The notes below the pieces were generated by a model, which made no database searches, was not told the DNA's origin, and saw only the letters and a list, made by a program, of their open reading frames with translations. Positions 3,989 through 30,523 of a stretch of 64,000 bases of DNA are shown here, piece after piece. Positions within the stretch are counted from its first letter, which is position 1, and the number at the start of each line of letters is the position of its first letter. The DNA is from Candidatus Bathyarchaeota archaeon (GTDB lineage Archaea; Thermoproteota; Bathyarchaeia; Bathyarchaeales; Bathycorpusculaceae). The stretch is taken from NCBI GenBank assembly GCA_963827165.1, contig CAWGZR010000003.1, positions 128,001 through 192,000 on the forward strand, given 5' to 3'. Made by a program: the position numbers and the translations under genes.

Positions 3989-4003
3989 TCCCGTCGGACC
4001 CGC
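3989..4003 (+). repeat. tRNA 3'-end-like direct repeat (outer att-like site, left)
   Basis: TCCCGTCGGACCCGC is identical to 30509-30523; both copies are followed shortly by TTTATACTGA. Confidence 0.7.
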
Positions 4004-4277
4004 CTTCCCACGTACACTTTTATACTGAAAACAATACTTCCCCTTTTTCTTTTTTGGTTAAATTAGTAGGTCCGGGAGAGACCTATGCATATGCTCACAT
4101 ATACCATTTTTTTGACCAGTTAAGGTTCATAAAAACGTAAGGCAGCTACACCATTTTTTTGTTGAATTGTCTACGCGAGAGCAATCTGAATGGTTTTCTT
4201 AGATTGTAGAATATCCACAAAGAAAAATCCTCTATTACGCCCCAGCAGGTTGACCAGTTCCCACCTTTGCCACAAAC

Positions 4278-4610
4278 TCAGTAGTTGTCGTACGCATTGG
4301 ATCTGTGTATAATGTCAAAAAACACGACAGCGTCGTCGTCTTTGCGATTGCAGTCCAAGCAAGAGTTGATTTTTCCATAGCCTTTTGCTCGACATTCCTT
4401 ACAAACGCTGTAAATGAGTCGATACCCAGCTTTGCCTATGTACATCCTTCGTTTGCCTTTGAACGCTGCTGTGAGTTCCTCTGAGTTTCTACATGGGTCT
4501 TCCATCATGTCTTTTATCTTTGATTCAACTCGCTGTTTTAGAAGAGCGTCTTTCTTAACGAGTTTCGCAAAGTGTTTTTGAAAATCCTGTGAGAAAAAAG
4601 GCGTGTACAC
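4278..4610 (-). CDS. RelE/ParE-family toxin with CxxC..CxxC insertion
   Basis: FQKHFAKL...EELTAAFKGKRRMYIG...YRLIY...FFDIIHRSNAY; starts immediately after the antitoxin stop. Confidence 0.75.
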   Translation of the reverse strand: MYTPFFSQDFQKHFAKLVKKDALLKQRVESKIKDMMEDPCRNSEELTAAFKGKRRMYIGKAGYRLIYSVCKECRAKGYGKINSCLDCNRKDDDAVVFFDIIHRSNAYDNY

Positions 4611-5285
4611 TTAGAACACTTCGTCGAAGCCCAGTAGCGGTTTCGTTCGTGCAGATTCTACCGCTTTTGTTAGTGAATCGAAGGTGTCCTTTTCGAGGTA
4701 TATTTCCAAAGTGGCAATTTCGGAAGGTGTGAGGGTAAAGACTTTGGTTGCTGCATTTTCTTGGATTGGTTTCAGCAGGGGGGCTCTGAGAGGATAACGA
4801 GCGATTGTTTTGGTTCTCTCTGCCGTTTCACTCAAGGCTAAAGGACTTTGCATTCGGTAAACAGAATTCAACAGTTTCTTGAATTCCAATGGTGCATACT
4901 GTCTATTTACTTCGGTTACGGTTTTCAAGAAAGCTCTATTTCGTAAAGAAATAGACCCAAAATCTTGGAGAATACGCGTGCATTTTTCCGTCGGAATTAT
5001 CTTGGTTCCTACCTCAGCCTTCTCAGTTTCCACGATCTTTGATTCGACAAAGCTTTTTAGGTCATTTCTAAGACCTTGGCTGTAGGGGCCATAGTAGAGC
5101 TTGATGAAATAGTAGCCGAAACCCCTTTCGTTCGTCTTAGTCATTTCCTTCTCTGAAATGAATGCGAGCTTCTGGAGTTTGGTTTCAGAGAGGAAATTCG
5201 TTCTTTTGCAAGCGTCGCCAATCGAGTACGCCAGCAAGAACTGATCAATCAACCTGTTAACTGTGGTTCTGACCACTTGAATCAA
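4611..5285 (-). CDS. Panacea/SocA-like (DUF4065) antitoxin
   Basis: TKLQKLAF and F-x4-YGPYS motifs; located directly upstream of the toxin. Confidence 0.7.
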   Translation of the reverse strand: MIQVVRTTVNRLIDQFLLAYSIGDACKRTNFLSETKLQKLAFISEKEMTKTNERGFGYYFIKLYYGPYSQGLRNDLKSFVESKIVETEKAEVGTKIIPTEKCTRILQDFGSISLRNRAFLKTVTEVNRQYAPLEFKKLLNSVYRMQSPLALSETAERTKTIARYPLRAPLLKPIQENAATKVFTLTPSEIATLEIYLEKDTFDSLTKAVESARTKPLLGFDEVF

Positions 5286-5382
5286 TCCAACAATAGGAGT
5301 AGATTCATCACAGCTATAAGATTTTTATTCCTTCTAACCATAAATTGATCAGTCAGCTCGTGGCGGACTACGGCGTGAATGA

Positions 5383-6177
5383 ATGGCGAAACCTTGGGCA
5401 ACCCCGCAATGGAAGAAGAAGCGTCTTGAATTCATACAGGACAAAACTTGTGAATGGCGCGGCTCAGCGGAGAACCTCGCAATTCACCACGTTGAACACT
5501 TTAACGGGTTGCAAGAATACAAGAAACTCTTAACCCGAACGATAAGTCAACATTTTGCTGCAGGGAAGAACAAAGATGAAAAGCTTGATTTGCTCGCCGA
5601 AGCCAATCAGAAAGTCCAGGTAAGGTATGTTAATTTATGTCCCAAGTGTGGCTCCCAAGTTTATTCCCGAAAAACCATTACTCCGAAATACAAATGCAAG
5701 AACTGCAGTACCGAAACCAACAACCCAGCGAAGAAACTAAGTCCTGACTCCCAGAAAGCATTACGCAGAGAATTCCGCAAATCCTTCCTGCAGAGCCACA
5801 AAGAAACAATCGACAAAACTTTCAAGGAGTTGAAGGAGAACTCAAATAAGGAGTACCTCGATTTCAAAAACGTGAACGTTCTGTGCAGAAAATGTCATTA
5901 CGCAAGAGAAAAGGGCTTGGTCATTTGCGAAGTCTGCCACAAAAGCTACCACAAACCCAAATACGAAAAATGCTGGAAGTGTTTCAAAAAAACTACTGAC
6001 GGCAAGACGGTTGCTCAGTTGAGTGAATTCTCACCATATATAAATCCGTGGTGTGGCAAAACTTTCCAGATTAAGAGAAAACTGTGGGCAGTTGAAGCCA
6101 ACCCAAGAACGTGTTGTATCTCTTATTGCGAAGAAGATCCTGAAAGTTGCATCAAAGCCAAAAGCAACTGGAGTTAA
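5383..6177 (+). CDS. HNH-like, multi zinc-finger protein
   Basis: QWKKKRLE..CEWRGSAENLAIHH...VLCRKCH plus several further CxxC pairs. Confidence 0.6.
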   Translation: MAKPWATPQWKKKRLEFIQDKTCEWRGSAENLAIHHVEHFNGLQEYKKLLTRTISQHFAAGKNKDEKLDLLAEANQKVQVRYVNLCPKCGSQVYSRKTITPKYKCKNCSTETNNPAKKLSPDSQKALRREFRKSFLQSHKETIDKTFKELKENSNKEYLDFKNVNVLCRKCHYAREKGLVICEVCHKSYHKPKYEKCWKCFKKTTDGKTVAQLSEFSPYINPWCGKTFQIKRKLWAVEANPRTCCISYCEEDPESCIKAKSNWS

Positions 6178-6202
6178 CACTCTAACTTAGAATTTCATCT
6201 CT

Positions 6203-6340: not shown

Positions 6341-6441
6341 TAGACTGACCTCAATTGCACTCAACTTACCCAACTACTATTTAAAATATGCACAACGGAA
6401 ATTGCCCAGAAAAAGGTTGGAAAGTACATATTAGCCCCTGG

Positions 6442-6525
6442 GGGTTCAAATCCCAGCTTGGTTCATAATTAGATTCGAACCCAATATAGTATACTTCCTC
6501 CAAATTGTTTTTGGGGTTCAAATCC
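6442..6525. repeat. Cluster of tRNA T-loop-like half sites
   Basis: GGGTTCAAATC 6442, inverted GATTCGAACCC 6472-6482, GGGTTCAAATCC 6514. Confidence 0.55.
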
Positions 6526-6966: not shown

Positions 6967-9834
6967 CTATTCTAACGGCGTTTTGGTTGAGCGCTTTCTT
7001 CTTCGCACTATCCCGATGATGACTGCTCCAAGCAAGATCATAGCTGCTGCAATGGTAACGTATTGACCCATTGTTGCAAACATTGTTGTTGGAGCTGAGG
7101 TTGGATTGGTAGTTGGTCTAAGTGTAGCTGTTGGTGTAGGCGGAATTGTGGGAGTTGGTATTGTTGTTGGATTTGGCAGGGTAATTGAGGTTTGGCTTTG
7201 TGCCCAAGTGGCTATTGGTATTGGAATATATGGGTTTGATTCGGTTGTGAACAAGATTTCTATTTGGTGGGTGCTGAAATGAGTAGTGAACGCTAGGTAA
7301 AAATTGTCAGAGTCTTGGGTGAATGATTGGTTTTCAGCCACTATGCCGTCGATGTAAACAACTGGGTTTGTTCCAAAGGGTATGGCGATTTTTGGAATGG
7401 TTAGGTTGCAGAATCCCTCTGTTCCGTTGGGTCCTGTTAGTGTAAAATCTACTGTGGTTATTCTTGTGTCTTGATTTGGGGTAATGGTCATGTTTGAGAA
7501 CTGTTCTGTAGTTACGTTTCCGCCTATTTCTACGGGGTAGGTTTCGCATGTATTAGTATCTGTTGCAGTTATTGTGTTGGTTGTAAAGTTAGCAGAGATA
7601 GAGTGATCATCCTGAACGTTTGAGAAAGTGTACGTTGATGCAACTGTGACTGCGGAACCATCGACTACTAAAGAGGAAATATGGTAACCCACTTGCGGTG
7701 TTATAACGAAAACTTGACTTCCACCATAGGAAACTGTTGAAGTTGATGGGGCAACAGTTCCATGATCACCTTGAGTAACCGTGATTGTGTAGGTGTTAAT
7801 CGCGAAAGTCACATCGATAGTGGTAGCTCCCGTAATGGTCGGGTTATAGCTTGAAACAGAACCTAAATGAATAGTTCCATTAACCACAACATCTGCTACA
7901 TTATAGCCTACGACAGGAGTGAAAGTGAAGTTAAGCGGAGTATTCCAATCAACAGTCTGATTAGCCAAATTAGATGCACCATTAGCGCTCACTGTAACCG
8001 TTATTGGGTAGTTATTTACGACAAAAGTAGGTGTTAACGTGTGGTTTGCATACATTGTTAACTCTAGAGGGTTGTTATTGCCTGATGGGTTGTTGTCAAC
8101 TGTCCAGAATGCGAGATTGTAGCCATCTGCTGGTGTAGCAACAACTTCTGCGGTATCGCCGTAGGTGTATGATTGGTTACCGTTCGTGGGATTGGTTGTT
8201 CCGCCCGATGCTGAGTTGATAGTTAGTTGGAAGGTAGTTGGGATCACGTATGCTTTTATGAGGTGATTTTGGTTCATAGTGACTGTGACAGAACTGTTTG
8301 TTCCTGTTACGCCGTCGAGGATCCAATGGTCAAGTGTTAATTGAGGAGGTAACCCTAAGTAATCAGCTGAAAGGTTCTTAATTGTACCTGAAGTGTAAGT
8401 CCATGATTGGTTATTCTGGAAAATATTGTTTAAGTAAATTTCAGCTGTTAAGTTGTATGTGTTAATCGCAAAAGTTGCACTAATGGATCCGTTATCTGAA
8501 ATTTCATTGAACTGGTATTCTTGACCTGCAGGGTTAGTGACAGTTACTGGTTCATCATTGACAGTTATGTTGGCGATGTGGTAGCCAGAATTTGGTGTTA
8601 TTGTGAAAATTGGTGTATCACCATAATTAACAGTGGATGTACCGGGTGAAATTTGGCCGTTATCACTCTGAGTAACCGTGACCGTGTAAATCGAAGGTGA
8701 AGTTAATCTTATCACCGAAATAGAACTGCTTTCATAACCTCCGATTGAAGTATAGACGTATTCACCGTTGGGTGTTACTGCTAAACCGCCAGATCCTCCA
8801 AAAAAATAATACATGCCGCCAAGGGATATTGTTTCTGTTACGGTGTTTGTAGCTGTGCTAATTACTGAAAACGAATTCCCGATATCCATACTGCTGTACG
8901 TAGCGTAGATGGATTCGCCGTTGGGTGCAACTGCAACGCTGCCAGTTCCGCCTTCTTCTGGATCTACCATCCCTCCGAGGATTATTGTTTGTGTTACTGA
9001 GTTTGTGGTTGTGCTAATTACTGAAACCAAATTCCCGTTCTGCCAATCGATACTTGTGACATAGACTGATTCGCCGTTGGGTGCAACTGCTATTCCACCA
9101 GTTCCACCTTCTGAAAAATCAGGGTAGCCGTTAAGGGTTATTGTTGCTGTTACTGTGTTTGTGGCTGTGCTTATTACTAAAACCGAAGTATCGTCGTAGC
9201 TCTCTTTGACGTAGATGGAACTCCCGTCAGGTGCCATTGCAACATCTTCAGGATTATTTAAGCCCGTTATTGTTGCTGTTACTGTGTTTGTGGCTGTGCT
9301 AATTACTGAAACTGTGTTGCCGCCGTAATTTGTAACGTAGACTACTTGGCCGTTAGGTGATACGACCACGCCTTCAGGATAGTTAAAACCAGTTATCGTT
9401 GCAGTTACCGTATTTGTAGCCGTGGTAATAACTGAAACAGTATTGTCGGAATAATTAGGAATGTAAACGTATTCACCATTAGGTGTTATAGCTGCGCCTA
9501 TAGGTTGGTTTCCAACAGTTATTGTCGTCACCACGGTATTTGTTAACGTGTTTATGACCGAGACTGTGCCATCGAATCTGTTGGTAGAGTAGACGTATTG
9601 ACCGTTGGGTGTTACTGCTATGCCGCCGACACCGTTTCCAACATTTATGGTTGTTGTTAATGTGGATGCTTGAGCTAATTGAGGTAATAATGCTAATGCA
9701 AATGATATCAAGAGAATAGCGGAAAAGATGCCTACAACTCTTATCGTTTTTGTTGTTTTATGCTGTTTATTGTGAATTCCTTGTTCAGTACTTGCTTTTT
9801 TCAGAAATTTATAATTCTTCATGGTTTGACTCAA
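6967..9834 (-). CDS. Surface protein: YVTN beta-propeller, InlB-B/Flg_new-like repeats, PT linker, C-terminal TM
   Basis: Repeated YVTNYGGNTVSVISTATNTVTATI; TP-x-x-GYHI repeats; signal peptide; TM followed by RRRKR. Confidence 0.9.
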   Translation of the reverse strand: MSQTMKNYKFLKKASTEQGIHNKQHKTTKTIRVVGIFSAILLISFALALLPQLAQASTLTTTINVGNGVGGIAVTPNGQYVYSTNRFDGTVSVINTLTNTVVTTITVGNQPIGAAITPNGEYVYIPNYSDNTVSVITTATNTVTATITGFNYPEGVVVSPNGQVVYVTNYGGNTVSVISTATNTVTATITGLNNPEDVAMAPDGSSIYVKESYDDTSVLVISTATNTVTATITLNGYPDFSEGGTGGIAVAPNGESVYVTSIDWQNGNLVSVISTTTNSVTQTIILGGMVDPEEGGTGSVAVAPNGESIYATYSSMDIGNSFSVISTATNTVTETISLGGMYYFFGGSGGLAVTPNGEYVYTSIGGYESSSISVIRLTSPSIYTVTVTQSDNGQISPGTSTVNYGDTPIFTITPNSGYHIANITVNDEPVTVTNPAGQEYQFNEISDNGSISATFAINTYNLTAEIYLNNIFQNNQSWTYTSGTIKNLSADYLGLPPQLTLDHWILDGVTGTNSSVTVTMNQNHLIKAYVIPTTFQLTINSASGGTTNPTNGNQSYTYGDTAEVVATPADGYNLAFWTVDNNPSGNNNPLELTMYANHTLTPTFVVNNYPITVTVSANGASNLANQTVDWNTPLNFTFTPVVGYNVADVVVNGTIHLGSVSSYNPTITGATTIDVTFAINTYTITVTQGDHGTVAPSTSTVSYGGSQVFVITPQVGYHISSLVVDGSAVTVASTYTFSNVQDDHSISANFTTNTITATDTNTCETYPVEIGGNVTTEQFSNMTITPNQDTRITTVDFTLTGPNGTEGFCNLTIPKIAIPFGTNPVVYIDGIVAENQSFTQDSDNFYLAFTTHFSTHQIEILFTTESNPYIPIPIATWAQSQTSITLPNPTTIPTPTIPPTPTATLRPTTNPTSAPTTMFATMGQYVTIAAAMILLGAVIIGIVRRRKRSTKTPLE

Positions 9835-10178
9835 ACCTTTACGATAATGCTATTTTCTTGAGTCTTATTATATAAAATATGAGAAGCAGTAATTCATGTT
9901 TTAAGATTTTTTTAATGTTTCTATTGTTATTGATTCATATTAAAGACAAATTTCGAAAATCTAATAGATCCAAGAACTAAAAGATGATTTTACCAGGTAA
10001 ATTGTTGCTATTATCCCTCGTCAGCGCCTGTCAGACTCCTGAAGATTAGGGACTAATACTGGGTAGGGGTTAAGCCCGGTACGACTCATCCTCGTCTCAA
10101 AGAAGTTTGTTTAAGTGATATTTTCAGGGTGATTCAAATTAATTTTACTCTTTTGGTCATTGTGGTTTGAACCCAATT

Positions 10179-11822
10179 CAGACTGTGTTAAAACTCAGCT
10201 AAATCCTAAGTGCATTTAGCATTAGAGCTATTGTCTGCAAGTCTTTTTTACTTGTTTTCTCTTTTTTACTTCTTCATCAAATTTATTATCGTCCTAACTC
10301 CAAAAATGTTGATGACTCGTCTCATGTTGTAAGCAAGCATCGTAAACCCAACCTCTCCCTTAACGTTCCTCAGACCCTTCAAGAGCACGTAACCCTGATT
10401 GAAAGCACGCTTAATCGTTCCAAACGGATGCTCAACTATCTGCCTCCTCAAACGAAGCTTCTGTCTGCCTTCACAACTCTGCAACCTTACTCTGAGACGT
10501 TCAACTGCGCCATAATACTTGGACCTAACCATAGTCCTTCCACGTTTGTTCCTCGTACACTTGCTCCTAAAAGTGCAGACAGCACAACCAACCGTCCTGT
10601 AAACCCTGCCTCGCAGGGGGTCATTTCTATACACGCACTTACAAAATGTCAGATCTTTGCCTGTGGGACAAACATACAGGTCTTTAGAAGCATTGTAAAC
10701 GAATCGGTCGGAATAGAACTCAGGCTCGGGAACTCCAATGCTTTTGTATGGGCTAAAAACATTAGGAATGGGCATAAACACCGTTACGCCATTCCCTTCA
10801 CAGTCAGCGATGTCTTTCTCAACGTAGAAGCCCTTATCGCTCAAAACCTCAAGCGTATCCACACCCAAAGTGTCCTTTGCCGCTAACGCATCCTTTGTGA
10901 GTTGATGATGGTCAGTTGAGTTATTTATCACGTCATAATCAACGATTAAGTGTTGTTTTGCATCAACCGACGTTTGAATGTTATAGCCGACTTCAAGCCG
11001 TTGACTATCCACTCTCATCAAGCGGCTATCCGGATCTACAAGAGAAACCTCGTTTTGGCCTGTGGCCTTCATCTGCTCCTGAATATGCTCGTACTGCCGC
11101 TTCTTGTCTTCCAACTGGCTTATTTTTTCCTTGAGCTCATCAGTCTTGACTGTTTCATCTTCGTCTGAATCGTCCGCATCATTGTGGTCCAATTCATTGA
11201 GATATTGTGCTATCTTTTCCTCTGTCTGCTTGAGTCTTTGAGCAACTGTTTTCTCATTGAGGTTGTTGCTTTTGGAATTTACTGCTTTGAATTTGGTGCC
11301 ATCAATCGCCACTAGTTGAGCTCCATAAAGATTTAGGCTTCTGCAGAGATACACAAATTCTTTGAATACTCCTTTGATGCAGTCGTCGTTGTCTTTCCTG
11401 AAGTCAGCGATGGTTTTATGGTCTGGAGTCAGCTTCTTCATGAGCCACATGACCTCAACGTTTCGGTGGCACTCTTTCTCGAGTTTTCTGCTGGATCTTA
11501 CTTGGTTGAGGTAACCGTAAACGTAGAGTTTTAGTAGGTCTGAGGGGTTGTAGGAAGGTCGTCCAGTGTCAGATAGTACCGAGTGTTTGAAACCAAGCTT
11601 TTCCAGGTTGAGGCTTCCTACAAAAACGTCGATGAATCTGACGGGGTTTTCTTTGTCAACATACTGGTCGATCGTGTCTGGGAAGAGTACCGTTTGGCTT
11701 CTGTAAGTGCCTATTACGTGTTCGCTCATGGCTTTTCAGCTCTTGCTGTTGTTTTAAAAGCCGTCTAGATTTAAGGCTAACGGTAAATAGCTATCAAAGA
11801 AAGAGACTTTTCACACAGTCTG
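10179..11822 (-). mobile_element. IS1182-family element, intact copy
   Basis: TIRs CAGACTGTGTTAAAACTC / GAGACTTTTCACACAGTCTG; AATT duplicated at 10175-10178 and 11823-11826. Confidence 0.9.
10266..11729 (-). CDS. IS1182 family DDE transposase
   Basis: GRPSYNP, SSRKLE, PDHKTIADFR, IDGTK, DPDSRLM, GYN, DKGF, VEHPFGTIK. Confidence 0.95.
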   Translation of the reverse strand: MSEHVIGTYRSQTVLFPDTIDQYVDKENPVRFIDVFVGSLNLEKLGFKHSVLSDTGRPSYNPSDLLKLYVYGYLNQVRSSRKLEKECHRNVEVMWLMKKLTPDHKTIADFRKDNDDCIKGVFKEFVYLCRSLNLYGAQLVAIDGTKFKAVNSKSNNLNEKTVAQRLKQTEEKIAQYLNELDHNDADDSDEDETVKTDELKEKISQLEDKKRQYEHIQEQMKATGQNEVSLVDPDSRLMRVDSQRLEVGYNIQTSVDAKQHLIVDYDVINNSTDHHQLTKDALAAKDTLGVDTLEVLSDKGFYVEKDIADCEGNGVTVFMPIPNVFSPYKSIGVPEPEFYSDRFVYNASKDLYVCPTGKDLTFCKCVYRNDPLRGRVYRTVGCAVCTFRSKCTRNKRGRTMVRSKYYGAVERLRVRLQSCEGRQKLRLRRQIVEHPFGTIKRAFNQGYVLLKGLRNVKGEVGFTMLAYNMRRVINIFGVRTIINLMKK

Positions 11823-11826
11823 AATT

Positions 11827-11850
11827 GGGTTCAAATCCCGCCCGGTCCAC
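11827..11850 (+). repeat. tRNA-Ala-like 3' fragment (inner att-like site, left)
   Basis: GGGTTCAAATCCCGCCCGGTCCAC; near-identical copy at 30285-30309 ends in CCA. Confidence 0.75.
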
Positions 11851-11891
11851 TCCCAACAGGGTTCAGGTCACAACAATACTTATTAGCCCAC

Positions 11892-13214
11892 ATGGCTGTT
11901 TCTTTAATTATGTCTGCTGCCCCGCAGAAGAATAAGTATCTCTACTTGTTTGAAGACCCCGACGTTAAGCGCTGGTATAATAACCTGGCAAGGGGGTCGC
12001 AAGGCACAGCTGACGTGTACCTAAGACGGATAGGTTCATTCTGTAAGAACCTTGATACAAACCCCAAGAAACTTGCCGCTTTAAGCGAACTTGAAATTTA
12101 CAATCTAATGCTTGATCACGTTTCTTCAATGGAAAAATCAGGATACACTGGAAGCTATATAGAATCAGTGATTAAATGTGTCAAATCATGGCTCGCTCAC
12201 AATGGAAAAGAAATCAGACGAAAAATCAAGATAAAGGATGCAAGAGAGTCGCCTTCACTTAAAAATGAGAGAGTTCCTACAAAGGAAGAGCTAAAAAGAG
12301 TATTCCTTTCGGGCGACAAGAAAGCGAGAGTAGCAAGCGTCCTAGTTGCTCATTCTGGGCTAAGGCTAGAGGTTCTAGGAAACTACACGGGAAAAGACGG
12401 ACTGACAATTGGTGACATGCCAGAAATTAAAATCCAGAACGGCATTGTTACCTTCGAGCGAAAACCCACCGTTATTGTTGTACGCAGAGAATTGAGTAAA
12501 GCAGGACATCAATACTTCACGTTTCTTAGCGAGGAAGGGTGCGGATACCTTCAAGATTACTTGGAAGAACGAATAAGAGAGGGAGAGGGACTATCACCAG
12601 AGTCTCCTGTGATAACGCCCAAGCTTAAAATGAAGCCATTCATACGTTCCACCAACATAGGCGACACAATTCGAGTGCCCCTGAGGGCTGCTGGCTTTGA
12701 TTGGCGGCCGTATGTCTTAAGGTGCTATTTTGATACACAATTAATGTTGGCCGAATCAAAAGGTTTAGTGCTTAGGGATTATCGGGGTTTTTGGATGGGG
12801 CATAAAGGAGATATTGAAAACCGCTACACTACTAACAAGCAGAGGTTGCCCGAGTCTGTTGTTGAGGATATGCGGGCGGCTTATGCGAGAAGCGAAGAGT
12901 TTTTGCAAACCAAAATGAGCGAAGAAACCACAGAGGAGAAGCTAAAGGGCATTTTTAGGCGACAATTTTTGTCGGTCGCCGGTTTTGGTAAAGGCGAGAT
13001 AGAAGACATGGATGTGATCTCTTTTAGTGAAGAGGAGCTGCAGAACCTCGTCAGAAAGAAACTACTGGGAGCTCCAACATCTGACAACTTCAAGCAGAAA
13101 GTCGTAACCATAGACGAAGCCGATAGCTATTTGTCCAAAGGCTGGGAATATGTTGCAAAACTTTCAAATAATAAAGTTGTTGTCAAAATTAGCTCTGAAT
13201 CAAAAAAAAACTGA
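11892..13214 (+). CDS. Tyrosine recombinase / site-specific integrase
   Basis: HSGLR, LSK, YVLR, MGH, RY catalytic pattern; adjacent to att-like site. Confidence 0.9.
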   Translation: MAVSLIMSAAPQKNKYLYLFEDPDVKRWYNNLARGSQGTADVYLRRIGSFCKNLDTNPKKLAALSELEIYNLMLDHVSSMEKSGYTGSYIESVIKCVKSWLAHNGKEIRRKIKIKDARESPSLKNERVPTKEELKRVFLSGDKKARVASVLVAHSGLRLEVLGNYTGKDGLTIGDMPEIKIQNGIVTFERKPTVIVVRRELSKAGHQYFTFLSEEGCGYLQDYLEERIREGEGLSPESPVITPKLKMKPFIRSTNIGDTIRVPLRAAGFDWRPYVLRCYFDTQLMLAESKGLVLRDYRGFWMGHKGDIENRYTTNKQRLPESVVEDMRAAYARSEEFLQTKMSEETTEEKLKGIFRRQFLSVAGFGKGEIEDMDVISFSEEELQNLVRKKLLGAPTSDNFKQKVVTIDEADSYLSKGWEYVAKLSNNKVVVKISSESKKN

Positions 13215-13243
13215 GTGAAAAGGAGAAGCTCGCACGCCGCGTG

Positions 13244-14030: not shown

Positions 14031-14039
14031 ATATACTTG

Positions 14040-22110: not shown

Positions 22111-22144
22111 AGATATTTTAGGTTTTTGGTCTAGTTTTTTTTGT

Positions 22145-23072
22145 TGTTCTATCTAGAAAATGCCTTACACTCTTGCATCGTAATATAACGCGAGAGTGGA
22201 GAGGGTTTGGACAGAGATTCAGATCAGTTAAAAGCGTGGATCATAAAGAAGAGATTGCAAGGTTGGTCGGTTACAAAAATTTGTGCATCTGCAAGGATAA
22301 GCAGGGACATGTTTTATCGTTGGTGGAGGCGCTATCAAGCAGAAGGCAAAGATGGCCTGAAAGGAAAAGCCAGAGGCAGGCCAAAGGGTTTGGACGTTGA
22401 AGACTCACTTAAAAAGAAAGTCGTCAAGCTGCGAGAAAGATATGAGTGGGGACCCAAAAAGATTGCTGGAAGCCTCAGACTCAAGGGTTACAAAGTAGAC
22501 AACAATGAGGCCTACCGGATCATCTGCCAAGCAGGTTTAAACCACCGCATAACGGAGCCTAGAAAGACCTGGGGAACCAAACGTTTCCAAAGGGAGCATT
22601 GCAACAGCCTCTGGCAAGCTGATTTCAAATTGTGCAATGACGACTGGTGGATGATAAGCTATCTCGATGACCATTCCAGGTTCATCACTGGATCGGTTAA
22701 GATTTGGAGTCCTACGGGTGAGAACGCTATGTTGCTGCTTGACAGGGCGGTTAAGCGGTATGGTGCTCCAAAGCAGATTCTCACAGATCAGGGAACTCAG
22801 TTTAAGCCTGCAAGAGGAGAAACATCCGCTTTTGACATTCACTGCACTGACCTGGGCATTGAGCATATTTGTGCCAGCGTTCGCAGGCCAACTACTTGTA
22901 GCAAAATTGAGGCTTTCCATAAAGCCTACGAGCTGGAGTCTCACCTCTTCAAAGAGCACTGGAGCTTCATCCGCTACTACAATTACACCAGACCACACGA
23001 AGGAATAGGCTATTTAACTCCAGCTGAAATATACCTAAAAGAGAAAGTGTAAGGCTATTTCTAAATAGAACA
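22145..23072 (+). mobile_element. IS481-family element
   Basis: TGT...ACA 27-bp imperfect TIRs (TGTTCTATCTAGAAAATGCCTTACACT); TTGT duplicated on both flanks. Confidence 0.9.
22207..23052 (+). CDS. IS481 family transposase (rve domain)
   Basis: FYRWWRRY HTH, WGPKKI, WQAD, DDHSR, TDQGTQF, KIEAFH, YNYTRPH. Confidence 0.92.
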   Translation: MDRDSDQLKAWIIKKRLQGWSVTKICASARISRDMFYRWWRRYQAEGKDGLKGKARGRPKGLDVEDSLKKKVVKLRERYEWGPKKIAGSLRLKGYKVDNNEAYRIICQAGLNHRITEPRKTWGTKRFQREHCNSLWQADFKLCNDDWWMISYLDDHSRFITGSVKIWSPTGENAMLLLDRAVKRYGAPKQILTDQGTQFKPARGETSAFDIHCTDLGIEHICASVRRPTTCSKIEAFHKAYELESHLFKEHWSFIRYYNYTRPHEGIGYLTPAEIYLKEKV

Positions 23073-23256
23073 TTGTTTTTTTGTCTTTTCCCAAGTTTTT
23101 ATAGATATAGCTTTTCTACAGGAACTTAGTGACGAAGCCTCAATACACATTCCTGTTTCTCGCGCATTTGAAAAAGTGGATCGCCATGAAAATCCTAGTT
23201 CGTCCGCTAAATTCGTCCATCTTTGGAATTAATCTTAATAATCGATGTGCTACTTT

Positions 23257-24541
23257 CATAAAAAAAGACGGGATGTAAAGGCTTTTTTCTGGATAGACCT
23301 CCGATAAGCCATATAATATCGGAGGATACGTGAAATGAGTGGAGTGGTAGTCGGATTAGATGTTCACCTGAAGAATACTCAGGTAACAGTCATGAAATTG
23401 AATGGGGAAGTAGTGAAAACAGAAAGAGTTAGAACCAACAAAGCTGACCTTCGAAGGTCATTGGAGTCGGTTCCTAAAGGAAGCAAAGTAGCATTGGAAT
23501 CTGTTGGTTTCTGTTGGCCTTGGATTGATTTTCTACATCAGCTTGAGTATGAGCCGCTGCTTGCTAACCCAGTGAAGGTAAAGTATCGAGCGGAAGATGT
23601 TAAAACAGATCGAGTAGATAGTAAGTTGTTGGCTGACTTAACGAGGATGAATTGGTTGCCAACGTGTTATGTTCCACCTGAAGAGTTAAGATGGCTACGA
23701 AACCTGCTCAGACACCGAGCTTACCGGACCAAACTTTGTACAGCTATGAAGAATAGAACCAAGTCCGAATTTAGAAAACGCGATATTGACCTGGAGACTA
23801 ATTTGGGTACGTTGAAAGGAAGAAAGCAGCTTCTAATCTTGGCATTTTTGAAGTGAATCAGAACGTGGAGCTGCTGGATCTGATGGACAGGCAAACTAAG
23901 GAGATTGAAGCCATGCTTAGAAGGAAATATGGGCAGGTGAAGCCTGTTTTGCTGCTTATGACTATTCCCGGGATTGGTTTTCTGTCTGCATTAACTTTGT
24001 ACGCTGAGATCTGCGACATTAAACGGTTTAGTAATCCTGAGAAGCTTGCGCATTATGCGGGTTTGGTGCCTCGTGTTCATCAATCAGGTGAGCATGCGTT
24101 TACGGGTAAGGAAACGAAGGGTGATGCTTGGTTGAAGTGGATTTTGACTGAAGCTTCTTGGTCGCATGTTCATTTTTGTCCTGAGGGTCATCTTGCTCAG
24201 GTGTTTAAGGATGCTCGGCGGAGGAAGGGGAATAGCAAGGATGCGATTAAGATTGTGGCTCGTAAATTGGTGAATGTGGTTTGGGCTGTTTGGGCGTATG
24301 AGAGAGAGTTCATGGTAAAGTAAGACAAGCAGCTAAGGAGATCTCCTGCCTTTTTCTGCGGCTTGACCGCTTAAAAAAGAATGGGGTGTTTCTTTGCTGT
24401 TGGCTGAAGCCGTATTGCGATTTGGTTCGCTGATAAGAGAATGTTGTCTGAAATACAGTTGTAGAAAAGGATTTAAGAAAAAAAGGAGGTTGAGGTAGTA
24501 GAGGTCTGTTCGGTTAGGGCTTTCGTCGTCTTCTTACATAA
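23257..24541 (+). mobile_element. IS110/IS1111-type element (ends approximate)
   Basis: CATAA at both junctions; imperfect subterminal IRs AAGACG..AGACCTC / GAGGTCT..CGTCTT; ~200-bp 3' non-coding region. Confidence 0.7.
23335..24323 (+). pseudogene. IS110 family transposase, frameshift near 23830-23856
   Basis: GLDVH, ALES, KTDRVD (DEDD domain); TIPGIG, YAGLVP..QSG, ARKL. Confidence 0.88.
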
Positions 24542-24604
24542 GAGAAAAAAGAATGGTTCTTAGGATGCTATAATGTCCAAATTAGCAAAAGCATCATTGA
24601 ATCA

Positions 24605-26572
24605 TTACCAATACAGGTATTGTGCAGTGATTGTCGTGTCAGAAGTTATGGGAATAGATGCTCCATCCGCGTAGTAAGCGCCTCCATCTTGCAGGTCAAG
24701 AAACTGCAGGTAACCGCCAGAGCCAGGGACTGCAATAGTGTGATATCCCAATGATATCGGTATAGACAATGGTGTGTATCCAACCAAGTTACCGTCAATA
24801 CCGACAGGCACACTGCCCTGCCCGTATTGATCCGTAGCGTACATCGTCAATGTGTAAGTCGGGATATAATTATAATACGCCGTTATCGTCATGGCCTCCA
24901 AGGTTGTTATGTCTGCGGGATTTCCATACCAATCAGTGCCGTCGTAGAAGCCGATGAAAGCGCCTCCACCGTCTGCGTCTGGCGCTTGAAATACGTGATC
25001 GAGATCCGACAAATCAAAAACGTTACCGCTTGAAACCCAGTTGCCATCTATCGAAATCGGAATGCCATTAACATAGTTACCACTAGACTCATCAAATACG
25101 AGCACCGTCACTTCGGGATCAGCGCCTATTGCAACCGCGTCTACATACAGATTCACAGGATTGTTGCCTGGATCGTAGCCTGCTATGGAGATCCAATTGA
25201 AATCGCCCATATATTGGCCTACAGATATCCAATAATCGCTATTTTGTGTGATTGTTATGCTGTTTCCAATTTGAACCCAATGCTGGTCATCATTAGATAC
25301 ATAAACGTAGAGATCGCTGGAGTACCCTGGTGCTGAAGAACCGCGGATATAGATATTGCCGCCAGAAGGAGCGTTCATCTGTCCCGTTATATATCCCCCG
25401 CTGCCATAAACCGACCCGTATATTTCCGCGTCATCACCGTCCTTTGTACCTACGATATTGTATGGGTTGTTCACAACGCCATTTCCATAAGGACCCCACT
25501 GATTTGAAACAACACTTGACACGTATGTTTGACTGTGCATTTCCCAGTAAATGTCGTATTGATTGCCCTGTGTATAACAGCAATCTGGTCTTACTCCCGT
25601 TGGAGGATGCCCGTCATCTCCAAAAAGAATAGAGCCGCCATAGTGTTCAAAGGGATATGAGAATTCTAAATACGTTTGGAAGAATGGCACATTTGTAATT
25701 TGGGTAGTGCTAGGTCGCATGAGTCCTTCGACGCAACTCGCCGGAGAGTAGGCAGAGGAATCACATACGATAAAGTTAGTTGTCGGAACATTAATTGTGA
25801 CTGGTGCACAATGGTTGTCATATGTTGAGCTTATGTCTTCAAGAGTAAAAGTGACAGTATTGCTTGACGATGAATACAATGAAAATTGGTATTGGTCATA
25901 TGGAATATAAGTTGCATTAATTGATGGCCAGTAGTAATATCCGCTTGGAGAGTCTTGACAATAAAGAGTCCAAGTAGGTAAATCGTCTTCTGCGTCGAAG
26001 ATCACAACAAATTGGATCCATCGGTAGTTATTAGTCGTTCCCCAAGCAATGTTCAGGGGTTCATAGAACAGTTTGTCATCATATGATCCTGTAGTCATGC
26101 CTTGGATCGTATTTGGGACAGCTATGAACGTTCCACTGATCGTTAGTGGAGGGGCGTCGTATGGCAAAATTGACGGTTGCTGCCAAAAATCAGTCAAATG
26201 CCAATATTGTCGGGGGTCGTCTAAAGGAGAAAAACCGTTAGCTGAGACATTTGAATTGGTTGAAGGATCTGGTGTATTTTGCATTTGTCCTTGACTTAGG
26301 TTTAAGACCCTTTGAGGCAGAACCGTTACATTTGTTTCTGTATGACCTGTTATTATCGAGCCCGGTCCAAGATTAGCCGGGCCGCCGGTGGTGATCGGAG
26401 TCACATTATTAGTGAAGGCATTTCTCAAGGAGATCGTCGTATTGATGTTTGAATTTGTTGAATTACTTTCAGCCTTTGCTTGTGGTACGTACTTTGTGCA
26501 AGCGATAGAAGTAAGTAGAATAATGAGGATAATTGATGCTACTGCGAAAACTTTTATAGATTTTTTTATCAT
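24605..26572 (-). CDS. Large secreted multi-domain protein
   Basis: Signal peptide (AKA); beta-rich domain with WIQF and CVEG; C-terminal PEGA-like repeats (IDGNLVGYTP). Confidence 0.75.
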   Translation of the reverse strand: MIKKSIKVFAVASIILIILLTSIACTKYVPQAKAESNSTNSNINTTISLRNAFTNNVTPITTGGPANLGPGSIITGHTETNVTVLPQRVLNLSQGQMQNTPDPSTNSNVSANGFSPLDDPRQYWHLTDFWQQPSILPYDAPPLTISGTFIAVPNTIQGMTTGSYDDKLFYEPLNIAWGTTNNYRWIQFVVIFDAEDDLPTWTLYCQDSPSGYYYWPSINATYIPYDQYQFSLYSSSSNTVTFTLEDISSTYDNHCAPVTINVPTTNFIVCDSSAYSPASCVEGLMRPSTTQITNVPFFQTYLEFSYPFEHYGGSILFGDDGHPPTGVRPDCCYTQGNQYDIYWEMHSQTYVSSVVSNQWGPYGNGVVNNPYNIVGTKDGDDAEIYGSVYGSGGYITGQMNAPSGGNIYIRGSSAPGYSSDLYVYVSNDDQHWVQIGNSITITQNSDYWISVGQYMGDFNWISIAGYDPGNNPVNLYVDAVAIGADPEVTVLVFDESSGNYVNGIPISIDGNWVSSGNVFDLSDLDHVFQAPDADGGGAFIGFYDGTDWYGNPADITTLEAMTITAYYNYIPTYTLTMYATDQYGQGSVPVGIDGNLVGYTPLSIPISLGYHTIAVPGSGGYLQFLDLQDGGAYYADGASIPITSDTTITAQYLYW

Positions 26573-26616
26573 TTTCCTATATCTCCTTTGTTAATTTGGT
26601 TTTTATGACTGTCCTC

Positions 26617-26760
26617 TTTCTGCCCTTCCCTTAGGGCTAGGCGGTGACACGCCCCCAAGACAATTCAGCCTTGGCTTTTAATGGGGATGACTATAAACTG
26701 CCTGCCTTTAAGGCAGAGAAGTCACCTTTAGCATCTCCTCAGCGGTATTTCCTTATATTA
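26617..26760 (-). promoter_or_regulatory. Structured 5' leader behind a TATA-like box
   Basis: TAATATAAG at 26760-26752; stems GGTGAC/GTCACC, CTGCCT/AGGCAG, CCCCA/TGGGG, GCCCT/AGGGC. Confidence 0.45.
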
Positions 26761-26799
26761 TTTCTTATGTATTCCTATTCCTATTAGGATTAAGAATAC

Positions 26800-28145
26800 C
26801 AGTAGATGCGAATAATTAGCGCAATTTCGCTTCAGGGGCCTTTTGATTTGGTTGAATAGGCGCGCTGAAGACTTTGGCTGCGCATTATTTTAAAGAGCTA
26901 ACAGTTGAGTGGCGCCCTCAAGCCTGTAGAAACAGACGGCAAGACAAAACATAAACAAAAAACCTTCAGAAAAAGAAAACGTCACCTATCATTCCGCCTT
27001 AAACTTCACACTACACCTCAACGGTGCCAGTTATCCAAACGAATCTGACAGTCTGCATAAAACAGCAGGCGAAGACCACAAGCAAGAAAACTTCAGCCTC
27101 ACCACGATAACATGATCCTTTGCCCGAACGTTTAGAAGAACCCACACGTTATACAGCAAAACAGCCAAAACAAAATACCAGACCCTAACAGAGTAGTCAT
27201 CGCAAGTCGTCTTAGCAAAAAACTGGCCAATCATCCTATAACTGGTCTCAATCCCCCAACGCTTCTTATACAGCTTCAAAATACGCTTTGGCCGACCCGG
27301 CAGATTGGTGCCCAAAAAATACTGCATACCTTTACAGTCAACAGCCTCAACCACGTCAACCCAGACGCCTTTAGTGCAGTACGTGAAGCGTTTTTGGTAG
27401 CGTTTCCACCTCCAACGCCTACGGAGCTTAACTGTGTCACGCAAAGGAATGATGAAGCCAATGTTGCGGTCGATAAGCGCCTGCAGAAGCTTGACATCTT
27501 GGAAACCGTTGTCAAAGGCCACGTAAGAAACTGATTCAATGTTCTGCAATACTTGGTCAAGCAGCAAAAGAACTATTTGCCAGAGGTTATCTCTTGATAG
27601 CAGCGGAACGACTGCAAGCACAAGACGTTTGCCGGGCGTGATGATGCTGACGGTAAGGTAGCAGTAGGCATAGCTTGTTCCACGTTCAGGCTTGGTGCCT
27701 ACTACTCCTTCCTTACTGTGTTTTCCGTAGAATCGCACATCATGCCAATCAAACGCTACAGCGACGTTAGCTGTAACTAGTCGTTTTTTGGCAAGAATTG
27801 TTACGCATTTTGCAATCTGAGCTCTGGCGACTTGGAGGGTGTCGTTGATGGTTTGCGTTTTAAGGTAGGCTAGGACGGTTTCAGAGGTTGGTGTGCTTTT
27901 TCTTTTGGCTTTTTGTTTTCGGAGTGCGTTTGTGAGTCCTTCAGCGTAGCAGTTCATGAGGGCTATTCTGAGCATTACATCAATGATGTCGGTTTTTTGG
28001 TACCATGCGTGCTGCTTCATCTGGAAAGTGAAGATCGGCGAAACAAGTTCTTGAACAAAGCTCTTGAACTTCAAGAAGGCATTATCCAAATTTGTCCCAG
28101 GAAGATATCAGGCAAAAAGCTAGCCATAAGTATTCGCATCTACTG
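26800..28145 (-). mobile_element. ISH3-family element
   Basis: TIR CAGTAGATGCGAATA / TATTCGCATCTACTG; ATAC duplicated at 26796 and 28146. Confidence 0.9.
27031..28089 (-). CDS. ISH3/IS4-like DDE transposase
   Basis: AFDWHDVRFYG, GTSYAY, FDNGF, YKKRWGIETSYR (YREK). Confidence 0.92.
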   Translation of the reverse strand: MDNAFLKFKSFVQELVSPIFTFQMKQHAWYQKTDIIDVMLRIALMNCYAEGLTNALRKQKAKRKSTPTSETVLAYLKTQTINDTLQVARAQIAKCVTILAKKRLVTANVAVAFDWHDVRFYGKHSKEGVVGTKPERGTSYAYCYLTVSIITPGKRLVLAVVPLLSRDNLWQIVLLLLDQVLQNIESVSYVAFDNGFQDVKLLQALIDRNIGFIIPLRDTVKLRRRWRWKRYQKRFTYCTKGVWVDVVEAVDCKGMQYFLGTNLPGRPKRILKLYKKRWGIETSYRMIGQFFAKTTCDDYSVRVWYFVLAVLLYNVWVLLNVRAKDHVIVVRLKFSCLWSSPAVLCRLSDSFG

Positions 28146-28289
28146 ATACAGCTAAACTCCAATGCAATCGCATTATGATATTTTGTATAGGTGTTAAACA
28201 GTTCTTGGGTTGGGCTACATTTCAGATATTCCTTTATACTATCTATTGTTTCTGCGTATGCTTGATAGTATTCCATAGAAGGTGTTAGC

Positions 28290-28610
28290 TTGAATGTGAG
28301 CTTTAAACCAAGTGTCCAAGAACGAATGCTAAAAGCCTTCTTGGACTTGACAGTCCTGCAAATGCTAAAACAGCAATCCATGACCGCTTACCAGATTGAC
28401 AATTTAATTATGGAAAAGTACCACAGCAAAATAAGCCCAAGCGTAATCTATGCGAAGTTAGCGATTATGGAAAGACAGGCGTTAATAGAATGTCATCCAC
28501 ATCATGGAAAAACATATAGCCTTGCCGAAAAAGGCCAAGATCTTTTAGCTAACAAACATGAGATAATTAAAGAAATTCACAACTGTACAATAATTTTATT
28601 TGAAAGCTAA
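28290..28610 (+). CDS. PadR family regulator
   Basis: FLDLTVLQML..MTAYQI..ISPSVIY..YSLAEKG. Confidence 0.8.
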   Translation: MNVSFKPSVQERMLKAFLDLTVLQMLKQQSMTAYQIDNLIMEKYHSKISPSVIYAKLAIMERQALIECHPHHGKTYSLAEKGQDLLANKHEIIKEIHNCTIILFES

Positions 28611-28674
28611 CGAAGAAATGAAAGTAACTCTAATTTTCTGCCGTCTCTTTTTGATTGGCATTGGCCAAAATTTT

Positions 28675-29992
28675 CGTGCCGTTCCTTTGTAGGTTAGAAT
28701 TATAGGCTTACTCTCGCCTCTGTTGTGCTGTAAAAGCGAAACAGCTACGCGGAGGTGAAAGTAAGCCTGGAATACAATGATACACCTTTTAATTTAGACT
28801 TAGCTGAAATCATCCGGAACATCAGCATCCAGTCAAAGCTGCAACTTACCCGGCAAATCGAGGAATACCAACAACAAATCATAGCTTATCAGTGTGGTCC
28901 AAAGTACTCTCGTAATCATTCATTCAAGAGAGCAGGCGCTTACACAAAAGAGTTAACGACGCCGCTTGGAACTATTCGCTTCAAAGCCCAAAAAGTCAGA
29001 AGAAGACCGACAACACTGTCACTTGCCCTATCATTGAATGTTTAGACGTTAAACGACGTAAATACTCAACAGACCTAAGGATTAAACTGGCTGAATATGC
29101 GTCAAAAATGAGTTACCAAGACGCAAGCTTAGAATTTGAAACAGCCACAGGCATACGTGTTCCAAAAAGAACCATACACCGTTTCGTCCATGAAATAGCA
29201 CCAAGGCTGCTGAAAGCAAACAACCCACAAAATCAGCCTGAAGTTAAACTGACAAAGCTAATGGGAGACTCAACAGAAGTCCGAGCATTAGCAAGCCGAG
29301 AAATGAACATGGTCCACGTCCTCATATCACCCGACAACGGACAACTCCTCCATCTAGACGTTAACTGCGAATGGCCAAACTGCGAGACAGACACGCTCAT
29401 ATCAGACAAAGAACCTGCCCTAACAAACGCTGTAAACGCCAACCATCTTCAGCTCTGCATTCTACACGCAATTAAGTACTTGCTATTCACTTTGTGGGGA
29501 GAAGGCATGAGCAAAGATGACCGAGCAAAAGTCAAAGTTGCAGTAAAAGAAGCACTCCTCACTCTGGTAAACTCCACTAAGAAGCATCTGCAAGACAAAG
29601 ACTACGATAGTCTGCAAGAGAGAATCAACAAAACTCTAAAGATACTTAACGAAGTTGCCAGGCAACTACAAGAAGACGGCTACAGTAGAGCGGGAGAATT
29701 TCTTAAAAAGAACAGCCGATTCGTCGTTACCTTTGCGCAACTTGCTCTGCAGGGCATCAAAATACCCTACACCACCAACAGGATCGAGCGTCTCATGGGA
29801 GAAGTCTCTAAACGCTGCAAGCACAAATGGATGCACTGGTCAACACAAGGTCTCAAAGACATCCTCACAATAGTGCTCGTCAGGTATACAAACAAACAGC
29901 TCTACGAAGACTTCAAAAAAACATATATCCACAACACAATCATTCACTAGAACAGCATACAGCACAACTCTAACCTACAACTGCACAGCACC
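28675..29992 (+). mobile_element. ISH6-family element
   Basis: Imperfect TIRs containing TTGTAGGTTAGA; 8-bp AAAATTTT duplicated at 28667 and 29993. Confidence 0.88.
28755..29950 (+). pseudogene. ISH6/UPF0236-type transposase, frameshift near 29005
   Basis: CGPKYSR, TPLG, MSYQDA, QLCILH, TTNRIERLMGEV..WS. Confidence 0.8.
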
Positions 29993-30263
29993 AAAATTTT
30001 TGATGCTTTTCAGTCAATATTTAAAGTTAAGGATTTGCATTTGCAAATGACCCAAAAGTTAAAGCCAATGAAAAATCTTTTATCTCAAAAACAAGCGCAT
30101 AACCTTTGATCATGTCGCTTCAAAGCCTAAGATTGGTTCTGATGATTAGGTTAAACCAGAAAAAACTCTTTCTCTATACGGGGCGCAGATTTTGATAGGT
30201 CTTGGTAGATTAGTAAATATATACGAAAATAGTCTGATTTAGAAAATTTTTGACAAATTGAGA

Positions 30264-30309
30264 GTTGTGGTTTGAACCCTGCACGGTTCAGATCCCGCCC
30301 GGTCCACCA
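30264..30309 (+). repeat. Palindromic att-like site with tRNA-Ala-like 3' end (inner, right)
   Basis: GTTGTGGTTTGAACC-CTGCAC-GGTTCAGATCCCGCCCGGTCCACCA. Confidence 0.75.
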
Positions 30310-30508
30310 GACTAAAATTAGCTCCGAATTGCTGTAAGGCATAAGTTGTTTCAAATTTGTTCCTTGTAGCCGACTAGCGCGTTCGATAAAACTTTTTTCT
30401 TGACTCTAAAAAAGAAATAGTCTGCAGAATAAATTCTTGCACTTGTAAAAATAGACAAAAAAGAAAAAGGGAGATTGAGGAATGAAATCGCCCGCATGTA
30501 GAGGTGAC

Positions 30509-30523
30509 TCCCGTCGGACCCGC
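30509..30523 (+). repeat. tRNA 3'-end-like direct repeat (outer att-like site, right)
   Basis: TCCCGTCGGACCCGC is identical to 3989-4003. Confidence 0.7.

Follow-up and report, generated by a model that had tools for sequence, protein, structure and literature searches.

The segment from position 3989 to 30523 of the window, which is the whole 64-kb stretch of DNA from a Candidatus Bathyarchaeota archaeon considered here, probably (at roughly 0.8) represents integrative elements of a single tRNA-targeting archaeal family that form a tandem array, now decayed, and the array appears to be orphaned from its tRNA-Ala gene. This reading is based on repeats of a tRNA 3′ end, the tRNA adjacency of the integrase family, conserved motifs, tandem arrays in relatives and the target preference of an insertion sequence (IS), all of which were observed directly. 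A locus of this kind, i.e., old integrated elements in a Bathyarchaeia chromosome, is already known and is ordinary in itself. The assembly is archaeal and consists of 3.13 Mb in 14 contigs with an estimated contamination of 3.9%; the closest relatives of the genes under study are found in Bathyarchaeia metagenome-assembled genomes (MAGs), and the base composition shows no visible boundary at the region.

Two tRNA-Ala tails and the recombinase between them

The 3′ end of tRNA-Ala(CGC) occurs twice in the segment, at 11827-11850 (+) and at 30285-30309 (+). The first copy, which forms the core of a junction named J1, is identical in 24 of 24 nt to positions 53-76 of the tRNA. The second copy, which includes CCA and is assigned as attR of an element named E2, agrees in 24 of 25 nt with positions 54-78, the mismatch being A>G in the T-loop. 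Each copy has TTGTGGTTTGAACCC on its 5′ side, and the gene of an intact 440-aa recombinase is located between them. The initial annotation of this DNA had described two palindromes followed by a tRNA-Ala-like tail, which is confirmed, the tail being the 3′ end of tRNA-Ala(CGC). The J1 palindrome (10160-11850) has the order TTGTGGTTTGAACCC-AATT[IS1182 10179-11822]AATT-GGGTTCAAATCCCGCCCGGTCCAC, and the J2 palindrome (30265-30309) has the order TTGTGGTTTGAACCC-TGCAC-GGTTCAGATCCCGCCCGGTCCACCA without any IS.

Judged from its sequence, E2 (11851-30284, 18.4 kb), which carries the intact integrase gene, would be an element of the Ala(CGC) type. Its left terminal inverted repeat, the P′ arm, spans 11851-11874 (+) and consists of the spacer TCCCAACA followed by the motif GGTTCAGGTCA at 11860-11870. 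The right terminal inverted repeat, the end of the P arm, spans 30265-30284 (+) and consists of TTGTGGTTTGAACCC plus TGCAC. The inverted ends previously reported for the integrase unit hold, with 15 of 18 positions identical between 11857-11874 and 30264-30281. GGTTCAGGTCA at 11860 is the GGTTCRRAACC motif of the integrase family, and its inverted counterpart is TTGTGGTTTGAACCC at the right end.

To the left of E2, the P arm of an integrase-less element, E1, spans 10077-10178 (+) and ends in TTGTGGTTTGAACCC plus AATT. The arm is conserved in the relative G023 (89% over 120 nt), where it closes an element in the form of a plain attR that has the Ala tail and CCA. In J1, the tail is thus preceded by the P arm of E1 and followed by the P′ arm and integrase of E2, and J1 would be an attP-like hybrid of the two elements, as expected from tandem integration. 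Further to the left, at 6419-6466 (+), lies J0, the remnant of an Arg-type junction, which comprises an arm, a CCCC-TG-GGGG palindrome, a T-loop and the first 6 nt of a tail and ends abruptly after CCCAGC. The portion 6419-6457 is 87% identical over 39 nt to L089:9876-9914, an arm-palindrome-tail junction directly upstream of a homologous integrase, and J0 is probably a third junction, Arg-type and decayed.

T-loop-like half-sites also occur at about 6472-6525, with GATTCGAACCC at 6472-6482 and GGGGTTCAAATCC at 6513-6525, and an inverted orphan tRNA-like tail, reading TTTT-GGGTTCAAATCCCATGGACCTGC on the minus strand, lies at 18100-18142 (−) and adjoins the left end of a second IS1182 copy. The tails at 6443, 6515 and 18128 match none of the tRNAs of the assembly. 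A small site family of the form (C)AATTG-TTTTT-GGGTTCAAATCC(A)TAGAG, whose tails likewise match no assembly tRNA, is represented at 6472-6525 of the window and at G000 C3:22693, C4:88526, C5:970008 and C13:7608. As a separate observation, seven non-tRNA T-loop-like GGTTCRAATC sites cluster in a 30-kb stretch that closes contig C5 (G000 C5:940390-970008), several of which follow GATATC-like arms of another kind; this stretch is probably another graveyard of integrated elements, from a different integrase family.

The T-loop-like half-sites described initially are real and non-random. GGTTCAAATC is present in exactly four copies in the window, at 6443 (+), 6515 (+), 11828 (+) and 18128 (−), against an expectation of 0.16, and TTYGAACCC in nine copies against 1.45; none of 100 shuffles reached four and nine copies, respectively. 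The half-site coordinates given initially are one base too low, and the fourth half-site listed there, at 30285, is GGTTCAGATC with one mismatch. The four inverted TTYGAACCC sites that had been named (ends 6482, 10174, 18138 and 30279) are all present, and two further ones, at 1937 and 25270, lie within open reading frames (ORFs) and are taken as chance occurrences. The sites said to alternate therefore exist; their alternation, however, is partly an effect of counting, as three of the eight half-sites (10174, 11827 and 18138) are flanks that directly adjoin IS1182 ends. In a genome-wide scan, the strict form of the palindrome, TTTGAACC-N6-GGTTCARA, is intact just once in the 3.13-Mb assembly, in addition to the IS-split copy.

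The recombinase, P0001 (11892-13214, +; 440 aa), was characterized by alignment, an AlphaFold model and a fold search. P0001 itself has no Pfam match at E ≤ 0.01, including PF00589, and a sequence search of NCBIfam and PDB sequences yielded nothing useful. It has at least 2292 homologs; among the matches listed, 31 of 120 carry a precomputed PF00589 match, and some are called 'site-specific integrase' by NCBI. R158, K203, Y274-x-x-R277, H304 and Y312 are invariant in an alignment of 26 sequences. The AF2 model has a pLDDT of 81.5, and Foldseek assigned it a probability of 1.00 to XerA, IntI, XerH, Cre, Tn1549 Int and lambda Int, with archaeal XerA 4a8e as the best match (E 2.3e-7) and IntI 2a3v at rank 7. 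The TM-scores are just 0.3-0.5, owing to the domain orientation and a C-terminal extension. Because the fold search settled the family, P0001 is placed among the tyrosine recombinases, with a predicted two-domain fold of core-binding and catalytic domains. The ORF is of full length and aligns end to end with its homologs, so the integrase is not split as in the SSV type, and it is present in a single copy in the genome. Past the catalytic tyrosine, the family has a conserved extra C-terminal region of ~90 residues (about 350-440), consisting of helices and a small beta sheet with G417 and W418 invariant, for which no counterpart was noted among the structural matches. The identity of P0001 is 57-85% to homologs of Bathyarchaeia and Hadesarchaea and 39-56% in other archaeal classes.

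Att sites and tandem arrays in the integrase family

Loci of the family were fetched from one genome per species, which gave 80 loci, 69 of them evaluable. In 45 of the 69, a tRNA called by ARAGORN on the strand of the integrase ends at most 130 nt upstream of it, and intron-tolerant or relaxed settings add 11, so that an intact tRNA adjoins the integrase in 56 of 69 loci; at least three of the remaining 13 resemble intron-containing tRNAs by eye. Many different tRNAs are used by the family. The closest homologs, L052, L053 and L054 (82-85% identity), adjoin intact tRNA-Ala genes, and their P′ arm, TCCCAA-A-GGGTTCAGGTC-CAACAA, is near-identical to that of the window. With up to 3 mismatches, GGTTCRRAACC is found 6-10 nt past the tRNA end in 37 of 46 loci, compared with 3 of 46 control segments. 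The proposal that the sites are recombination sites of the neighboring tyrosine recombinase holds, and a T-loop-like motif is conserved in them. The further claim that they are placed away from any tRNA gene by design finds no support, given the 56 loci at which the integrase adjoins an intact tRNA.

In the bounded relatives G001 (34.8 kb), L084, L101 and L119, attL and attR are identical over just 12-15 nt, and this block corresponds to the 3′ strand of the T-stem and the acceptor stem, the T-loop being excluded. To the left of the block, attR carries an element-borne palindrome, e.g., GACCCC-TTTT-AGGGGCTAG, whose pseudo-T-loop half differs from the real tRNA. Because the identity is limited to the tail and the attR sites have palindromes of their own, the crossover must, as far as sequence comparison can tell, be placed in the tail (T-stem-3′/acceptor), with the palindrome as the P arm sequence carried by the element. 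The same attR as in the window is found in G016 with the spacer AACAC, and the window spacers are AATTG and TGCAC. As the palindrome is element-borne, such spacers would reflect different elements; their differences are presumably variation between related elements and show no sign of homology-independent exchange, and the A/G difference between the T-loop halves of the two window copies fits element variation. The initial annotation had placed the crossover in an N6 spacer with Tn916-like independence of homology, which does not agree with the position of the identity blocks in the 12-15 nt tail of the bounded relatives.

An exact-repeat search for attR in 46 loci with ~10 kb of downstream sequence gave nothing convincing in 39; of the seven matches, L084, L101 and L119 were accepted, and L065, L067, L074 and L106 are doubtful. 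No tail copy was found within 38 kb at G019 and both G003 loci. In the genome of the window itself, three other tail repeats are canonically anchored on their tRNAs, namely Leu (18.4 kb), Arg (5.8 kb) and Ala-TGC (14.8 kb).

Junctions consisting of a tail only, without the 5′ part of a tRNA, are found upstream of the integrase in L086 (G016), L089, L091, L111 and L125. L089 has two tail copies and an intact tRNA-Arg with the same tail 3.5 kb upstream, and L086/G016 has three successive tail copies, the first of which lies inside a tRNA-Arg-like sequence. The tail-only junctions of these two loci are anchored on a tRNA 3.5-8.6 kb upstream, and both are ordinary tandem arrays. Accordingly, the suggestion of tandem accumulation stands, in that elements of the family do form such arrays. 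Both the growth of arrays through repeated use of one att site and the occurrence of short att sites within the 3′ part of tRNA genes are described in PMC6563490 and PMC8371274. At about 107800-108710 of C5 in G016 (L086), two small ORFs come after an Ala-tail attR, and a 5′-truncated tRNA-Ala(CGC) pseudogene lies ~780 bp beyond. The left end of that G016 element has an Arg tail, which means that tails of different tRNAs are combined in G016 as well.

IS1182 insertions and other contents of the probable array

IS1182 copy 1 occupies 10179-11822 (−), with its transposase at 10266-11729, and the IS1182 model NF033551 gave 399.3 bits against a cut-off of 270. The ends of this copy are CAGACTGTGT and ACACAGTCTG, with AATT on each side (10175-10178 and 11823-11826), which is a 4-bp target duplication at the center of the J1 att palindrome. 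Other IS1182 copies of this genome and the genus show the pattern ...CCC-NNNN|IS|NNNN-GGG..., where one flank is a tRNA-like tail and the other an arm. Of 28 distinct flanks, 18 have CCC at a distance of 3-5 nt from the IS end, compared with 2.5% of random genome positions; the flanks were counted with a loose end pattern that includes some false ends. Across the genus, IS1182 is found in the 4-nt centers AATT, AAAA, ATTT, TAAT, TTGG and GAAA of CCC-N4-GGG att palindromes, and such sites include 10175-11826 and 18139-18142 of the window, L133-L157, and G000 C3:25124, C9:25337 and C9:14223. In G023, IS1182 lies in the same spacer as in J1 of the window in the opposite orientation, which indicates an independent insertion.

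IS1272 and other IS1182-family members target palindromes or stem-loops according to PMC5678879, and the targeting of att palindromes is in line with this. Common to both cases are an IS1182-family transposase and insertion into palindromes, and loop duplication is one outcome drawn in the model of that paper. Compared with the IS1272 case presented there, the targets here differ in being CCC-N4-GGG centers of integrase att palindromes in an archaeon, and a 4-bp duplication is kept and the stem-loop is not replaced.

The second IS1182 copy (18143-21709, −) is interrupted by a group II intron at 19410-21340 (−), for which Rfam D1-D4 and domain V/VI matches were obtained and whose reverse transcriptase (RT)/maturase ORFs are split. 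One metagenome contig joins 19409 to 21341, which corresponds to an intron-less form of this copy or of a related IS. Copy 2 has the inverted orphan tail on its left only; the lack of a match at its right flank points to a later rearrangement.

The cargo labels given initially also hold (YVTN TIGR02276, 131.5 bits; IS1182 NF033551, 399 bits; signal-peptide-like ORFs). E1 carries a 955-aa YVTN beta-propeller/InlB-B-repeat protein (6967-9834, −), matched by TIGR02276. The E2 backbone and cargo at 13244-17884 comprise small ORFs together with an IS91-family transposase (14175-15176), a winged helix-turn-helix (wHTH) gene (15668-16030) and a 405-aa secreted protein (16158-17375) whose N-terminus is signal-peptide-like by eye; the wHTH gene, small ORFs and a 134-aa ORF are common to other elements of the family. 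To the right of IS1182 copy 2 follow an IS481-like element (22207-23052), IS110 (23335-24323), a 655-aa secreted protein, again with a signal-peptide-like N-terminus by eye (24605-26572), an ISH3-like IS (26797-28148), PadR (28290-28610) and an ISH6-family remnant (28667-30000). From these feature coordinates, mobile DNA, i.e., IS or group II intron, makes up ~9.1 of the 18.4 kb of E2. Near the left end of the segment, at 4278-5285 (−) and just inside the left copy of the 15-nt direct repeat described below, a ParE-like toxin ORF (110 aa) comes directly after a Panacea (SocA-like) ORF (224 aa), which is likely a toxin-antitoxin pair. Outside the segment, the window contains an archaeal RNase P RNA at 43118-43419 (+; Rfam, 194.8 bits), and a short PF00589-matching open frame (43693-44067, −; 156 aa, 28.8 bits) lies ~300 nt from it, which is possibly an integrase remnant beside the RNase P RNA gene.

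Competing explanations and a proposed course of the integrations

Several observations weigh against a decayed array orphaned from tRNA-Ala. No intact tRNA anchors the array, and none is present in the 64-kb window according to ARAGORN, Rfam at gathering score and a whole-genome RF00005 search, which agrees with what the initial annotation had stated. The only called tRNA genes of the contig, at 197-199 kb, lie beyond the right edge of the window, on the downstream side of the array. The sole intact tRNA-Ala(CGC) is located on another contig (C6:98793-98870). Its locus is regarded as native because its upstream neighbor is kept in relatives, the downstream side being variable, and it lacks elements of the family, the family motif and any tail repeat; the synteny comparison yielded no partner for a reciprocal rearrangement. 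The array mixes tails of different tRNAs, i.e., Lys-like, Arg-like, Ala and one further type, and repeated integration into a single tRNA is therefore not a sufficient explanation. A plausible attR was obtained in just 4 of the 46 loci with ~10 kb of DNA downstream; the bounded elements on which the attP model depends are therefore few. L091 and L111, which are two of the five relatives with tail-only junctions, have no tRNA within 10 kb upstream.

Free forms were not found either. No relative of the integrase is present in IMG/VR viral contigs, PLSDB plasmids or INPHARED phages. A read search with 11823-16000 found six runs with small word shares (≤0.19), all kept as contigs. When four public runs were compared with 11000-30600, short low-depth contigs matched pieces of the region exactly; their joints are 11834>12079, 19409>21341 and 27262>28535, no 11851>30285 joint is listed, and these contigs contain no excised, circular or empty-site form, which speaks neither for nor against excision of E2.

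The best-surviving alternative, which we regard as rather unlikely, is that 3989-30523 is a larger element bounded by a Lys-like repeat, with the Ala- and Arg-type att sites nested inside as passengers and no chromosomal tRNA-Ala ever involved here. An exact 15-nt direct repeat, TCCCGTCGGACCCGC, occurs at 3989-4003 (+) and 30509-30523 (+), coinciding with the start and end coordinates in the initial annotation, and loose similarity continues for ~30 nt more. The left copy resembles the 3′ tail of tRNA-Lys(CTT), with 14 of 15 nt shared with C11:56354. Exactly 37 nt inward from each copy there is a perfect 16-nt inverted repeat (3989-4056 and 30456-30523, direct repeats included). In addition, part of PMC6563490 describes piggy-back integration for thaumarchaeal elements, and in a search with the flanks (right 30330-34000, left 500-4000) in 30 genomes of the genus, neither flank was syntenic; the best matches to TFB were orthologs of a paralog beside tRNA-Gln. 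The segment as a whole may thus be a larger element that carries the array. However, both boundary repeats are statistically weak: by chance alone, 27.5 kb should contain ~0.35 exact 15-mer repeats, and the inverted repeat is a T-rich low-complexity run found at six genome places with ≤1 mismatch. Moreover, the left copy has neither a following integrase or GGTTCRRAACC nor a preceding 5′ part of tRNA-Lys. The flank synteny in these 30 genomes was too poor for an empty site to be reconstructed.

The integron-like platform favored by the initial annotation, in which the integrase would use T-loop palindromes as autonomous sites and build cassettes of surface or secreted proteins independently of tRNA by homology-independent crossover in the spacer, is considered very unlikely. 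It would account for the motif conserved beside the integrase, the several junctions of the window that share an orientation and lack a tRNA, the tail-only junctions of L091 and L111, the tails of different tRNAs at one locus, the three cargo ORFs that look secreted or surface-exposed, and the presence of IntI among the structural matches. On the other hand, the tRNA adjacency of the family, the identity blocks in the tail instead of the spacer and the single intact strict palindrome in the genome all speak against it. The integrase is itself part of a unit, and an integrase of its own is present in every related element. The units hold from no gene to many genes, and the reported 41-bp and 6.3-kb cassettes are not borne out: they are bounded by unlike sites, namely the truncated Arg-type junction, a half-site matching no assembly tRNA and the inverted orphan tail at an IS end, and IS or intron DNA accounts for about half of the integrase unit. 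The cargo of the bounded relatives consists of restriction-modification systems and not of secreted proteins. As single-stranded DNA, the J2 palindrome forms a hairpin of −5 kcal/mol, which is no better than shuffles (z = 0.12). An artefact, in which the half-sites are IS1182 ends or target duplications or the array was cut from its tRNA by a MAG mis-join, is hardly credible, as the palindrome and tail occur without an IS at 30265-30309 and in G016, the IS ends begin at CAGACTGTG inside the AATT duplication, the 24-nt tail repeat is judged too short to cause a mis-join and the low-depth contigs of four public runs match pieces of the region exactly, although three half-sites directly adjoin IS1182 ends and the assembly has 14 contigs with the contamination given above.

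For the decayed array, the following course can be proposed, in which we infer the order of events, the position of the crossover within the tail and the route by which the anchor tRNA was lost. Recombination by a recombinase of the family would take place between the attP carried by the element and the 3′ end of a tRNA gene. From left to right, this attP would comprise a P arm with a GGTTYGAACCC palindrome half at its end, a spacer of 4-5 nt, a T-loop-like half, 12-25 nt equal to the T-stem-3′/acceptor strand of the tRNA, 6-10 nt and GGTTCRRAACC, after which the integrase gene follows. On integration, the tRNA would be regenerated from the copy of the element and the original 3′ end displaced to the far side, leaving the element between direct repeats of the tRNA tail. 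E2 would have integrated beside the earlier, integrase-less E1, with the truncated Arg-type J0 and the half-sites further left. During decay, the palindrome-targeting IS1182 would have inserted in the 4-nt center of J1 and beside the inverted orphan tail, followed later by at least five other IS and the group II intron. Deletion, a rearrangement mediated by the integrase or an IS, or arrival of the array within a larger element may account for the loss of the anchor tRNA.

The array resembles classical archaeal elements, which are found in the 3′ parts of tRNA genes (reviewed in PMC8371274; thaumarchaeal catalogue in PMC6563490), in having an intact integrase gene beside att, a tRNA 3′ end as the target, short direct repeats (12-25 nt), tandem arrays formed by re-use of the site and defence-gene cargo. 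The direct repeats of E2 are the 3′ part of tRNA-Ala(CGC); E2 differs from 56 of the 69 related loci in that no regenerated intact tRNA lies beside its integrase, and no tRNA anchors the array of the window. The GGTTCRRAACC arm motif and the P-arm palindrome do not appear in the passages of PMC8371274 and PMC6563490 that were compared, a comparison that does not cover the literature as a whole. Genomic islands that accrete in tandem at tRNA and tmRNA genes are described in the Islander database paper (PMC4383910). As in those islands, a regenerated target and displaced 3′ fragments mark the ends, and islands lie head to tail; unlike them, the regenerated target gene is missing here, and fragments of more than one tRNA type are present. 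According to PMC5495485, Int-pTN3 causes chromosomal inversions between att sites or tRNA genes in Thermococcales. Such a route would move att segments off tRNA genes and mix att sites of different tRNAs; the integrase family and host differ from those here, however, and no inversion breakpoints are demonstrated in the present locus. With integrons, the locus shares a tyrosine recombinase, imperfect palindromic sites and arrays of units in one orientation. In contrast to integrons, the integrase lies between two like repeats and not outside the array with attI and a promoter, the sites have a tRNA-identical core in a family whose norm is integration into tRNA genes, and there are neither single-ORF promoterless cassettes nor any sign of a folded single-strand site. 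The closest known system is, we presume, the classical archaeal integrase of type II, the 'pNOB8-type'.

As a more far-reaching and quite unlikely extension, the combination of arm palindrome and tRNA tail left by integrations could be a sufficient landing pad for integrases of the family, whichever tRNA it came from, so that arrays would grow, mix tails and persist or move after the loss of the tRNA. Such a locus would be a tRNA-independent accretion platform, with IS1182 homing to the palindrome centers and locking elements in place.

The comparison provides a working attP/attL/attR model and the GGTTCRRAACC arm motif for a very large pan-archaeal integrase family. With this att model, integrated elements in uncultured archaea would be delimited precisely despite att repeats of 12-25 nt. 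Hits of IS1182 at att centers would split attR or attP-like sites from the arm and could fix islands in the chromosome. Orphan tRNA tails like these give rise to false 'tRNA fragments' and to repeat patterns that mislead.

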